Assembly: GCA_039206675.1 (NCBI GenBank)
Contig: JBCEBZ010000111.1
Span: 756-64,755, forward strand
Reading direction: 5' to 3'
DNA length: 64,000 nt
Origin: Rhodococcus sp. (in: high G+C Gram-positive bacteria)
GTDB taxonomy: Bacteria; Actinomycetota; Actinomycetes; Mycobacteriales; Mycobacteriaceae
Each line of letters begins with the position of its first letter. The stretch's first letter is position 1. A program made the translations under genes and the position numbers. Positions 37,701 to 39,930 of this stretch are shown piece after piece. The notes below the pieces were generated by a model. That model saw only the letters and a list, made by a program, of their open reading frames with translations, ran no database searches and was not told the DNA's origin.

Positions 37701-39930
37701 CGTGCTCGACGCCCACCTGAATCCGGCGCCGATCGGCGTGCCCGGCGAGCTGTACCTCGACGGCGCGCAACTCGCTCGCGGCTACGTCAACAGTGCCGCG
37801 CTGAGCGCGGACCGATTCGTCGCGAACCCGTTCGGCGATCCGGGCATGCGGATGTACCGCACCGGTGACCTCGTCCGGTGGAACGAGAGCGGTGTCCTCG
37901 AGTTCGTGGGGCGCACCGACTTCCAGGTGAAGGTGCGCGGACTGCGCATCGAGCTCGGCGAGGTCGAGGAAGCGTTCGTCCGGCACGGGGACGTGGCGCA
38001 GGCAGCCGTGATCGTGCACAACAGTGAGGTGGGGGCGCGGCTCGTCGCCTATGTCGTGCCGAGGCCCGACGCGGCGATCGACCAGGTGGCGCTGAACGCG
38101 TTCGTCGCGGAATCGTTGCCCGAGTACATGATCCCGGATTCCGTGATGGTGCTCGCCGAACTTCCGCTGGGCACCAGCGGCAAGCTCGACCGGCGCGCGC
38201 TGCCGGTGCCGGACTTCGCGTCGGCGGCCGAGTTCCGCTCGCCGCGCACCGACACCGAACGGGCACTCGCGGCCGTGTTCGGGGAGCTGCTCGGCCGGGA
38301 GAGCATCGGAATCGACGACTCGTTCTTCGACCTCGGTGGCGACAGCATCGTGTCCATCCAGTTGGTGGCGCGGGCGCGTGCGGCCGGTATCCACTTCACC
38401 GCGCGCGATGTGTTCGAGCGGCGAACCGTTGCCGAGCTGGCCGCAGTGGCCGACTCGGGCGAATCCGCGGCGGCGGCACTGGCCGAGTACGAGGGTGGCG
38501 GCGTCGGAACCGTGCCGCTCACCCCGGTCGCCCGCAAGATGGTCGAGCGCGGCGGCGACTTCGACCGATTCGTCATGCCGTTGCTGCTGACCCTGCCCGC
38601 CGGGATCGAACGCGAGCAGGTGCTCGCGACGATCACCGCCGTGGTGGACCGGCACGACGTGCTGCGGTCGACGCTGGTCACGGGCGGCGGCGAGGACGCG
38701 CTCGAGATCGCACCGGCGGGCAGCGTCGACGTCGACGCCCCCGTGCAGCGGGTGGAGATCGCGGCCGGCGCCGAGCCCGGTTCGCCGGAGTTCGACGCGG
38801 TGGCGGGTGCGGCCTTCGACGCGGCGCTGGATCGTCTCGATCCGCGCACCGGGTCGATGCTCCAGTTCGTCTGGTTCGACCCCGCCGAGGCGGATCGGCG
38901 CGGACGGCTCCTCGTCGTGCCGCACCACCTCGTCATCGACTCCGTGTCGTGGCGGATCCTGGTGCCGGACTTCGCGACCGCAGGCGCCCAGATCGCCGCG
39001 GGCACGTCGCCGTCGCTCGAGCCGGTCGGAACGTCGCTGCGCCGATGGACCGACGGTCTGCTCGAGGCGGCAGCGACACCGGAGCGGGTGGCCGAACTCG
39101 CGGTGTGGGAACGGATGCTGACCGGTCCCGACCCGCTGCTCGGCTCGCGTGAGCTGGACCTGCGCACCGACCTGGTCGGCACGCTGGAACGGACCCGGGT
39201 GGACGTGCCCGCACCGGTCACGGAGGCGTTGCTGGCCGGCACTCCGGGTGCTCTCGACGGTGAGATCGGCGACGTCCTCGCGGCGGCCCTCGCGCTGGCG
39301 GTGGCAGCGTGGCGTCGTGACCGCGGAGTCGAGGCCTCGTCGACGGTGGTCACGCTCGAGGGCCACGGACGTGAAGAGTCCGCGGTGCCGGGGGCGGATC
39401 TGTCGCGGACCGTCGGCTGGTTCACCACGATGTACCCGGCCCGTCTCGATCTCGGCGGAGTGGACATCGCGGATGCCATGAGCGGCGGTGCGGGCGCGGC
39501 GGACGCGGTGCGCGCGGTGCGCGATCAGCTGAGCGCGATCCCGGACCGGGGAATCGGGTACGGACTGTTGCGATACCTCAACCCCGACACGTCGTCGGTG
39601 ATGAGGAAGTGGCCGGAACCGCAGATCGTGTTCAACTACATCGGACGCGTCAGCGCGGCCGAGGTTCCCGAGGCGGTCCGCGGACTCGACTGGCTGCCCG
39701 ACTTCGACTCTCCCGTCACGGGCGGTTTCGAGAAGAGCGCGATGCCCGCCCAGGCCGTTCTCGACATCCAGTCGGTGATCTCGGAAACCGCGGAGGGCCT
39801 GCAGCTGTCGGCGTTCATGTCGTTCCCGCCCGGCATCCTCTCGGCGCCGGACGTGGACCGGTTCGGGCAGTTCTGGGTGGCGGCGCTCACCGCGCTCGTG
39901 GCTCAGGCCGAGGAGCGGTCGGGGCACTGA
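6115..39930 (+). CDS. Nine-module non-ribosomal peptide synthetase, 11,271 aa, single ORF: Cstarter-A-T-E / C-A-T x6 / C-A-T-E / C-A-T-E, with no TE or R domain
   Basis: Nine AMP-binding cores (TSGSTG.PKG-type) sit near 7969, 12690, 16261, 19465, 22972, 26167, 29330, 32521 and 37178. Nine carrier-protein serine motifs (FF.LGG[DN]S) sit near 9112, 13841, 17410, 20598, 24115, 27290, 30475, 33664 and 38323. Twelve HH...D[GS] condensation/epimerisation motifs are present. TTG start at 6115 with GGAG at 6105-6108; an in-frame TAA at 6109-6111 closes the frame upstream. Confidence 0.97.
10791..13990 (+). other. NRPS module 2: DCL-type C2 - A2 - T2
   Basis: C2 begins [13 protein letters not shown], as expected after an E domain. 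HHILLDGWS at 11272-11298. A2 core [11 protein letters not shown] at about 12684-12716. T2 [12 protein letters not shown] at about 13841-13870. Confidence 0.85.
13991..17570 (+). other. NRPS module 3: LCL-type C3 - vestigial A stub - divergent A3 - T3
   Basis: C3 [10 protein letters not shown] at about 14025. HHICADGAS at about 14407-14433. Stub at 15400-15700. A3 core [12 protein letters not shown] at about 16255-16290. A10-like [10 protein letters not shown] at about 17257. T3 [12 protein letters not shown] at about 17410. Confidence 0.8.
15400..15700 (+). other. Vestigial A-domain N-terminal fragment (stub 1) between C3 and A3
   Basis: [55 protein letters not shown] aligns with the first ~60 residues of A2/A4/A6/A8, as far as the region just before core A2. 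Similarity is then lost. A second copy of the C-A linker signature (LVGDIEIV) follows before the real A3 starts at about 15766. Confidence 0.7.
17571..20770 (+). other. NRPS module 4: C4 - A4 - T4
   Basis: [11 protein letters not shown] at about 17607. [10 protein letters not shown] at about 17984-18010. A4 core [11 protein letters not shown] at about 19459-19491. T4 [12 protein letters not shown] at about 20598. Confidence 0.85.
20771..24285 (+). other. NRPS module 5: C5 - vestigial A stub - A5 (close paralogue of A1) - T5
   Basis: [11 protein letters not shown] at about 20799. [10 protein letters not shown] at about 21175-21204. Stub at 22213-22500. A5 core [11 protein letters not shown] at about 22966-22998. 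T5 [12 protein letters not shown] at about 24115. Confidence 0.8.
22213..22500 (+). other. Vestigial A-domain N-terminal fragment (stub 2) between C5 and A5
   Basis: [83 protein letters not shown] is colinear with stub 1 (LP.LL....V.PD..A..H.G..VTY......S..L...L...G.GP.A.V.V.LS.L.P......S.....F...L..VIADA). It is truncated at the same point. Confidence 0.7.
24286..27460 (+). other. NRPS module 6: C6 - A6 - T6
   Basis: [11 protein letters not shown] at about 24317. [10 protein letters not shown] at about 24694-24723. A6 core [11 protein letters not shown] at about 26164-26196. T6 [12 protein letters not shown] at about 27290. Confidence 0.85.
27461..30650 (+). other. NRPS module 7: C7 - A7 - T7
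   Basis: [11 protein letters not shown] at about 27490. [10 protein letters not shown] at about 27868-27897. A7 core [11 protein letters not shown] at about 29323-29355. T7 [12 protein letters not shown] at about 30475. Confidence 0.85.
30651..35270 (+). other. NRPS module 8: C8 - A8 - T8 - E8
   Basis: [11 protein letters not shown] at about 30673. [10 protein letters not shown] at about 31048-31077. A8 core [11 protein letters not shown] at about 32518-32550. T8 [13 protein letters not shown] at about 33664. E8 [10 protein letters not shown] at about 34270-34299, with [17 protein letters not shown] and FNYLGR. Confidence 0.85.
35271..39927 (+). other. NRPS module 9: DCL-type C9 - A9 - T9 - terminal E-type domain (end of protein)
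   Basis: C9 [14 protein letters not shown] and [10 protein letters not shown] at about 35767-35796. A9 core [11 protein letters not shown] at about 37175-37207. T9 [13 protein letters not shown] at about 38323. Terminal domain [10 protein letters not shown] at about 38923-38952, plus EGHGRE and FNYIGR. The stop at 39928-39930 follows directly. Confidence 0.85.

Follow-up and report, generated by a model that had tools for sequence, protein, structure and literature searches.

The stretch analyzed here, 64,000 nucleotides of a Rhodococcus contig (JBCEBZ010000111.1, positions 756 to 64,755; hereafter the window), carries a single gene (6115-39930, forward strand) for a nonribosomal peptide synthetase (NRPS) of nine modules and 11,271 aa, which ends in a carrier (T) domain and an epimerization-type (E) domain, E9, with no thioesterase (TE), reductase or terminal condensation (C) domain behind them. 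We confirm that this is the true terminus of the assembly line, without a release domain in cis and without a candidate release enzyme in the window. E9 further belongs to a clade of terminal E domains that have no docking tail, and every readable terminal module of this clade has an adenylation (A) domain with a Gln-type code. How the chain is released had been called an open question in the original prediction, and we agree; we tentatively favor a hydrolase acting in trans.

A genuine terminus without a release domain

The open reading frame (ORF) list, a motif map and a matrix of domain identities define the gene, and the motif mapping gives the module order as C1 (starter)-A-T-E1, six C-A-T modules, C8-A-T-E8 and C9-A-T-E9, followed by the stop. 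The last module opens with C9 (35260-36684), a DCL-type condensation domain by the identity matrix and alignment, with the motif HHILLDG, 54% identity to C2 and 30% or less to C3-C8; in the alignment a GG-x-TPSD linker stands at its start. It is followed by A9 (36685-38214), from which we extracted the Gln-type code DAWQFGLINK, and by T9 (38245-38499), a carrier of the E-partner type with LGGDSI at 38332-38349 inside a stretch of ten quoted residues; LGGDSI recurs in T1, T8 and T9, and LGGNS(L/I) in the T domains ahead of C domains. E9 (38500-39927) contains HHLVIDS (38923-38943), EGHGRE (39358-39375), FNYIG (39631-39645) and DIQS (39763-39774) and ends 0 aa beyond the domain boundary, with the TGA stop (39928-39930) next. 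The original prediction had thus described this end correctly: the line finishes in T-E without a TE, reductase or terminal C domain, the protein stops right after the E domain, the quoted motifs, including the 34 protein letters and FNYIGR, lie where it had placed them, its labels E1 and E8 are right, and the NDxLL motif is altered in E9, where a different stretch of 14 residues stands.

The position of the stop is kept in the orthologs. In four orthologous loci (91-93% identity), the source group of the window being the opacus/wratislaviensis/jostii group of Rhodococcus, the frame is intact over 3,893-3,894 codons and stops at the same position, as does that of a more distant ortholog, L081, whose terminal E domain is 66% identical. 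Just beyond the stop lies a GC-rich hairpin between convergent genes (39938-39981; -38.5 kcal/mol, z = -4.2), which none of 200 shuffles matched in stability and which is kept in the orthologs L001-L004. This hairpin has no T-run and went unflagged in a T-run-based terminator scan, and sigma-70 and Rfam scans of the window gave no match; it is probably a bidirectional terminator. A convergent sigma-factor gene ends at 39983, 52 nt past the NRPS stop. The conserved stop and frame, the hairpin and the nearby convergent gene together rule out a sequencing error or read-through at the stop, and with it the possibility, raised in the original prediction, that the NRPS continues past an erroneous stop codon. 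Beyond T9 there is neither a GxSxG TE motif nor a PF00975 domain, and Pfam scans of all credible ORFs of the window recovered no thioesterase, reductase, beta-lactamase/PBP-fold protein or stand-alone C domain, which bears out the earlier statement that the window encodes neither a PBP-fold protein nor a type II TE nor a stand-alone C domain.

An E domain at the end of an NRPS protein may mark a junction between subunits, and the other terminal E domains in the fetched loci show what such a junction looks like. About 30 other proteins there end in E, and about 25 of them bear a COM-type donor tail of about 25-45 aa (GG-x-TPSD...SQ-x-EI-D/E-x-LE, with SQ-x-EID in the common form), with an NRPS gene whose first domain is of the DCL type directly behind them. 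From the HH motif to the stop these tailed termini span 346-402 aa, as against 335 aa in E9, and in the alignment the window protein ends just ahead of where the linker would start. No NRPS gene lies downstream of E9 here or in the orthologs, the next gene being the convergent sigma factor or an AurF gene. Lacking both a tail and a partner gene, E9 was rejected as a subunit junction by this comparison. A profile search of 1.84 billion representative proteins returned about 45 tailed against about 13 tail-less termini, a count for which alone we use it, the ranking being dominated by giant NRPSs with multiple E domains and not clade-specific. One E-ended NRPS from an Acidimicrobiales metagenome-assembled genome (MAG; L030, about 10001-11779) likewise has no TPSD tail, ending in a 12-aa tail; it keeps the motif Gly and falls outside the Rhodococcus clade described below.

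E9 and its clade

By several lines of evidence E9 is a genuine E domain, for which ordinary epimerase chemistry is the default. It is 49-51% identical to the two internal E domains of the same protein, E1 in module 1 (9295-10749; HHLAVDG, EGHGR and FNYLG) and E8 in module 8 (33841-35259; recognized by its motifs, 49% identical to E9), which is the same distance as that between E1 and E8. The TIGR01720 profile matches E9 with 83.7 bits against a cut-off of 74.2 (117.8 bits for E1), the match ending at profile position 133 of 155 so that the last 22 positions are unmatched. In a phmmer search all ten PDB sequence matches of E9 were E domains, and an AlphaFold model (pLDDT 83.6, pTM 0.82) gave E domains as its top 13 Foldseek matches (E = 1e-25 to 1e-29, TM 0.75-0.83), with TM-scores of 0.83/0.86 to the E domain of TycA (2XHG). 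C and X domains match the model at about 1e-20, and C, X and release-type C domains score worse than E domains by nine orders of magnitude, those of the release type (6CGO, HtmB2-CT) ranking far lower. With the E motifs and the TIGR01720 signature present and C-type structures ranking so much lower, E9 was rejected as a terminal condensation-like (C_T) release domain.

Mutagenesis of GrsA has assigned catalytic roles to the Glu of EGHGRE and the Asn-Tyr of FNY. These residues of EGHGRE and FNY(L/I)G are present in E9 and invariant in all ten aligned clade members, and E9 also keeps the His and Asp of HHxxxDG, with only the Gly replaced by Ser. Of 118 sampled E domains, 97 have Gly directly after the catalytic Asp, and 21, internal domains among them, have Ala, Ser, Asn, Glu or Val; the Gly-to-Ser change is thus insufficient by itself as a sign of changed function. 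Over five orthologs the ratio of nonsynonymous to synonymous substitution (dN/dS) is 0.137 for E9, 0.133 for E8 and 0.130 for A9, every domain of the protein lying between 0.08 and 0.14, and since E9 does not differ from E8 or A9 in this respect it is maintained like any working domain. The suggestion in the original prediction that a variant E9 may differ functionally is therefore countered by its full set of epimerase catalytic residues and by a constraint equal to that on E8. Its related claim that E9 stands apart from ordinary E domains holds insofar as E9 falls in a separate, strongly supported clade; the Gly-to-Ser substitution on which it drew is weak evidence, given the 21 of 118 without Gly. 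In fold, in the HH..D, EGHGRE and FNY motifs, in the TIGR01720 signature and in the GGDSI-type partner carrier E9 resembles the canonical E domains of TycA, GrsA, TycB3, PvdL and BacC (2XHG, 5ISX, 6TA8, 9LCP, 9RDE). Unlike them, it has no downstream DCL domain, either in cis or via a COM/TPSD tail, and it has Ser/Ala in place of the motif Gly together with about 20 clade-specific invariant residues.

The closest database homologs of E9 are also tail-less, with Ser or Ala at the motif Gly position. In a tree of these homologs and members added from genomic loci, E9 groups in an 11-member clade in 200 of 200 bootstraps, other tail-less E termini being placed elsewhere. The members come from Rhodococcus, Tomitella gaofuii, a Williamsia MAG and soil metagenomes, and all lack the TPSD/COM tail and have Ser or Ala after the Asp. 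Besides the epimerase catalytic residues about 20 clade-specific positions are invariant (examples being FVMP, G162, T285, EPQIV and DIQS); by inspection about 5 of 37 clade-specific residues lie within six residues of a catalytic residue, roughly the chance expectation. Two apparent stand-alone T-E proteins, P0018 and P0003, were discarded as such, being fragments of larger NRPS genes at scaffold gaps, with real stops.

The modules that precede these E domains are alike in specificity. The code of A9, DAWQFGLINK, recurs in L081 and in Tomitella L085, although the A domain of L085 is 53% identical overall, and DAWQFGLVDK is found in L079, L080 and L090. The code of A9 matches nine of the ten positions of the classic Gln code, DAWQFGLIDK, and we predict that A9 loads Gln. 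Codes beginning with DAWQFG were read in 9 of 156 A domains across the loci, eight of the nine being these terminal modules, and a Gln-type code is present in every readable terminal module of the clade. The ending E-C-A(Gln)-T-E is repeated in L079 and L090, and the penultimate code is also similar, DAFFAALIWK in L079 against DAFFSALIWK in the window. Because L079 and L090 share these last two modules, the independence of the lineages is tempered, and the clade is best seen as one old homologous Mycobacteriales NRPS family whose products would end in D-X8-D-Gln9. The Gln code may then be conserved simply because the product is, rather than for a mechanistic reason. The clade and the conservation of the code together show, at the level of sequence, that A(Gln)-T-E without a tail is a conserved terminating unit of this family.

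Routes of chain release

At its other end the line begins with C1 (6115-7494), a starter-type condensation domain whose best PDB sequence matches are 7C1K/H/P (E ~1e-68), which we take to be structures of the RzmA starter C domain; further best matches are ObiF1, the C1 domain of CDA PSI and EntF. As C1 is a starter-type domain the first residue would be N-acylated, and together with E1 in module 1, directly followed in cis by the DCL-type C2, this implies a peptide whose N-terminus is acylated and D-configured.

From these features we propose, if at somewhat less than even weight, that the gene encodes a functional nine-module lipopeptide synthetase in which E9 epimerizes and a trans-acting cytoplasmic hydrolase frees a linear N-acyl nonapeptide. 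In this scheme the starter C would prime the line, the last module, C(DCL)-A(Gln-type)-T-E, would complete it, and E9, as an ordinary epimerase, would equilibrate the T9-bound peptidyl-Gln thioester to the D form, giving a product that ends in D-X8-D-Gln9. The chain would not be handed off to another synthetase, since there is neither a docking tail nor a partner gene, and SurE-type head-to-tail closure would not fit, because the N-terminus is predicted to be acylated and D-configured. A cytoplasmic alpha/beta-hydrolase acting in trans, encoded in this strain outside the window, would then release the linear nonapeptide, which we consider the most likely route with modest confidence and by analogy with the hydrolase genes of related loci.

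The hydrolase nearest to the NRPS in the window is not a good candidate. The original prediction had pointed to a signal-peptide-bearing lipase at 46242, and we indeed find there a class-2 lipase (46242-47177, forward strand; Lipase_2/DUF7379 by Pfam) with a Sec-type signal peptide and a GHSLGG box. Homologs with 55-67% identity lie 0.1-6.5 kb from the tail-less T-E ends of L080, L081, L085, L086 and L090, which is every such terminus with enough flank, and homologs also adjoin TE-ended NRPSs in L082, L084 and L088; in all Mycobacteriales contexts retrieved such a lipase gene lies near a giant NRPS gene, and every NRPS-adjacent homolog has a signal peptide. Tomitella L085 has in addition a second lipase paralog (8799-9731), apparently without a signal peptide. 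Being secreted in all NRPS-adjacent cases and accompanying TE-ended NRPSs as well, the lipase was rejected as the missing thioesterase and is better regarded as a general extracellular accessory. Cytoplasmic hydrolases are found in some relatives: orthologous Abhydrolase_3 genes, 51% identical (E = 7e-91), stand co-directionally at the stop of the tail-less T-E NRPSs of L085 (12818-13786) and L087 (1613-2494), with the esterase motifs HGGG and G-D/E-SSGG and with remote homologs annotated as epsilon-lactone hydrolases, and cytoplasmic Abhydrolase_1/6 genes occur in the accessory block of L080 and L090. The published H-CA8f cluster also lists an esterase beside the lipase (PMC8477407).

Several observations weigh against release by such a hydrolase. 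The window encodes none that is cytoplasmic, and neither does the flank visible in L081, the closest distinct ortholog. The neighboring hydrolases of the relatives belong to two unrelated families, neither of them universal, and could serve other roles. The Abhydrolase_3 group is rare, has no homolog in the window and yielded none in the R. opacus group in a word-limited search, and is not supported as a universal partner. Finally, an E domain paired with a generic hydrolase leaves the approximately 20 invariant clade-specific residues and the strict Gln code unexplained.

These last features would find a place in the main rival, a somewhat unlikely route of Gln-dependent cyclative self-release, in which the Gln side-chain amide attacks the T9 thioester, after or instead of epimerization, to give a C-terminal aminoglutarimide that may later open to Gln or isoGln, with the E-type domain as the catalyst. 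In an E domain the active site already places a general base beside the thioester. [quoted passage not shown] Both of those systems present a terminal T-bound Gln thioester with its side chain as a possible nucleophile, as predicted here, but they use a Ser-His-Asp thioesterase domain, whereas the window NRPS has an E-type domain alone after T and the glutarimide is purely hypothetical; no E domain is known to act as such a catalyst. The code of residue 8 is conserved too, and Gln may reflect product conservation alone; an internal Gln-E module in L049 causes no release, no spontaneous formation of glutarimide from D-Gln thioesters was observed on assay time scales, and the clade-specific residues are, by inspection, not enriched around the catalytic motifs. 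That tail-less A(Gln)-T-E constitutes an unrecognized, self-contained termination module, with E as the general base that drives thioesterase-free aminoglutarimide release and a product that is probably D, is accordingly a speculation that we consider unlikely. The broader proposal of the original prediction, E9 itself as a release or cyclization catalyst, stands neither shown nor excluded.

It is quite unlikely that no dedicated catalyst exists and that spontaneous hydrolysis, E9-assisted hydrolysis or a housekeeping type II thioesterase frees the D/L-equilibrated thioester. The lack of a release gene in the window or L081 and the normal appearance of E9 agree with this, and the original prediction had already considered an ordinary epimerase with simple non-enzymatic hydrolysis, but that purifying selection has kept a 34-kb gene intact across genera argues for efficient, evolved off-loading, and the clade-specific conservation would again go unexplained. 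That in orthologs the pap/AurF operon directly adjoins the end of the NRPS gene, that no A domain of the window has an obvious aryl-amino-acid code, that C domains are known to release chains with free nucleophiles (e.g. 6CGO) and that a peptide-corynecin hybrid has been speculated upon (PMC8477407) would suit either condensation-like release by E9 onto a free amine, for instance a p-amino- or p-nitro-phenylalanine-type compound made by this operon, or passage of the chain in trans to an NRPS elsewhere. We regard this as very improbable, since E9 is clearly of the E type in both fold and sequence, with far lower scores for release-type C domains, the operon also stands beside TE-ended NRPSs (L082, L088) and was not seen beside L085, L080 or L090, and no COM tail or partner gene is present in any lineage.

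The original prediction had looked to SurE-like PBP-type thioesterases, and a T-E terminus with a D-residue is indeed the hallmark substrate of these enzymes (PMC11735501, PMC9810689). The lines that they serve (SurE, WolJ/DsaJ, Ulm16, PenA, FlkO, MppK) end like the present one in T-E, with a D-configured last residue (presumed here) and no cis TE. They start, however, with a free L-amino acid and close head-to-tail, a reaction that needs a free L-configured N-terminal amine (PMC11735501), whereas in the window line a starter C domain and a D-residue stand first. Neither the window nor the flanks of seven related loci contain a PBP-fold gene, and the gene tables of L080, L081, L085, L086, L087 and L090 as well as the window have none of the PF00144 type; the characterized examples come from Streptomyces and related genera. 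A PBP-type enzyme encoded elsewhere that recognizes the D-residue and releases or cyclizes the peptide is thus highly improbable. It is scarcely credible that a longer synthetase has lost its final module or TE and that the gene is now decaying and makes no product: E-TE architectures do occur among relatives (P0012, P0071) and the protein ends exactly at the would-be linker start, but the 34-kb frame is intact, dN/dS is low in every domain, and at least five diverged lineages retain this ending. A comparable ending is that of the thermoactinoamide synthetase ThdB (and of the fungal AnaPS with its terminal E-like domain), which also finishes in an E domain with release unexplained; its cluster has no TE, SurE or C_T, and its authors speculated on a role of the E domain in release (PMC7253712). 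ThdB is a Firmicute enzyme for a small head-to-tail cyclohexapeptide, unlike the predicted N-acylated nonapeptide with conserved terminal Gln of the Mycobacteriales.

The gene cluster and other features of the window

The layout of the window is that of the Rhodococcus gene cluster families GCF-1/GCF-5 (Undabarrena et al. 2021, PMC8477407), in which a left arm (carboxylase, ACAD, dehydratase, CoA-ester lyase) and a right arm (lipase, AurF, TyrA-like, ADC synthase, chorismate mutase) flank a variable NRPS middle section, reduced to one gene in subclade 4a; comparison of Pfam and NCBIfam assignments with Table 1 of that work matches the arms to 18-2873 and 41616-47177. The ABC-transporter block of these families is absent from the window and present in L081. 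Domain-level termination is not discussed in that paper, where thioesterase, epimerization and release have zero mentions each. Some members of the GCF-1/GCF-5 type (L082, L088) end in a TE, whereas the window NRPS ends in T-E; the TE-ended NRPS of L082 was rejected as an ortholog keeping a module lost here, its modules being merely paralogous (47-55% identity). The rhodoheptin/rhodamide synthetases of Rhodococcus likewise have a starter C and mixed D/L residues via E domains and have the codes DVWSLALVHK, DLWHLILVSK and DALFVGGIMK in common with the window, but they end in canonical TE16-type thioesterase domains, which the window NRPS does not.

Several window codes are the same as those tabulated for the rhodoheptin/rhodamide synthetases. 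The A3 motifs of the nine A domains lie at aa 619, 2192, 3383, 4450, 5619, 6685, 7738, 8803 and 10355. A1 and A5 are 69% identical and have a common code, DVWSLALVHK, A2 and A4 have the near-identical codes DALFVGG(V/I)MK, and no substrate was assigned to DQKNLGNVTK (A3) or DTGVVGAVIK (A6). Modules 3 and 5 each contain, between the C and the real A domain, a vestigial A-domain N-terminal stub of about 100 aa (15280-15609 and 22051-22374) with 40-47% identity to the A2/A4/A6/A8 type; the stubs look as if left behind when recombination once replaced the A domains there.

The left arm (18-4874, forward strand; Pfam) encodes the biotin-carrier end of a carboxylase, an acyl-CoA dehydrogenase, a MaoC dehydratase, an HpcH-type CoA-ester lyase and an acetoacetyl-CoA-synthetase-like ligase; these leucine-catabolism-like genes, corresponding in the part 18-2873 to la6-la9 of PMC8477407, are a possible source of a short (branched) acyl-CoA starter for C1. 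Between them and the NRPS start lie 1.24 kb (4875-6114) with no credible ORF or Rfam match and with 56-65% G+C against about 70% elsewhere, presumably a regulatory or promoter region. On the other side of the NRPS a strain-specific insertion (39983-41567; Pfam, NCBIfam) comprises the SigJ-like ECF sigma-factor gene (39983-40984, reverse strand) and a CMD-family gene (41082-41567, forward strand). L001, L003, L004 and L081 lack it and have the AurF gene directly at the NRPS stop, so that it does not belong to the conserved cluster; at the same site R. opacus DSM 43205 (L002, about 11734-13933) has two GT2-like glycosyltransferase genes; the site just past the NRPS hairpin is an insertion hot spot.

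The right-arm operon (41616-46025, reverse strand; Pfam, NCBIfam) consists of genes for a CM_2 chorismate mutase-like protein (45561-46025), a fused PabAB ADC synthase (43489-45561), a prephenate-dehydrogenase-like protein (42572-43492) and an AurF-type N-oxygenase (41616-42575), all on the reverse strand. The block is also found in L081, L082 and L088, and its four genes correspond to the chloramphenicol/corynecin-like ra7-ra10 of PMC8477407. Their family assignments suggest synthesis of a p-aminophenylalanine-type precursor with N-oxygenation; neither a CmlP-like A-T-R gene nor a beta-hydroxylase is encoded in the window. Farther downstream, a 533-aa ORF (51775-53376, reverse strand) in which TetR_N and TetR_C stretches each occur twice resembles a TetR regulator that was duplicated in tandem or fused, and a Mce-type lipid-uptake operon (55819-63908), with a MlaE permease and several MlaD/Mce4_CUP1 proteins, follows fatty-acid genes (ECH, acyl-CoA synthetase) and is probably unrelated to the NRPS cluster.

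NRPS lines without a release domain have already yielded one new enzyme class, the PBP-type thioesterases, and the present case does not fit it. The clade, a widespread and phylogenetically coherent group, turns what appeared to be a one-off oddity into a family-level question on release, within what has been called the most abundant NRPS cluster family in Rhodococcus. An aminoglutarimide terminus, if true, would be chemically relevant as the thalidomide/cereblon pharmacophore, and either a trans-hydrolase partnership or Gln off-loading by an E-type domain, if true, would allow better structure prediction for many orphan actinobacterial clusters.

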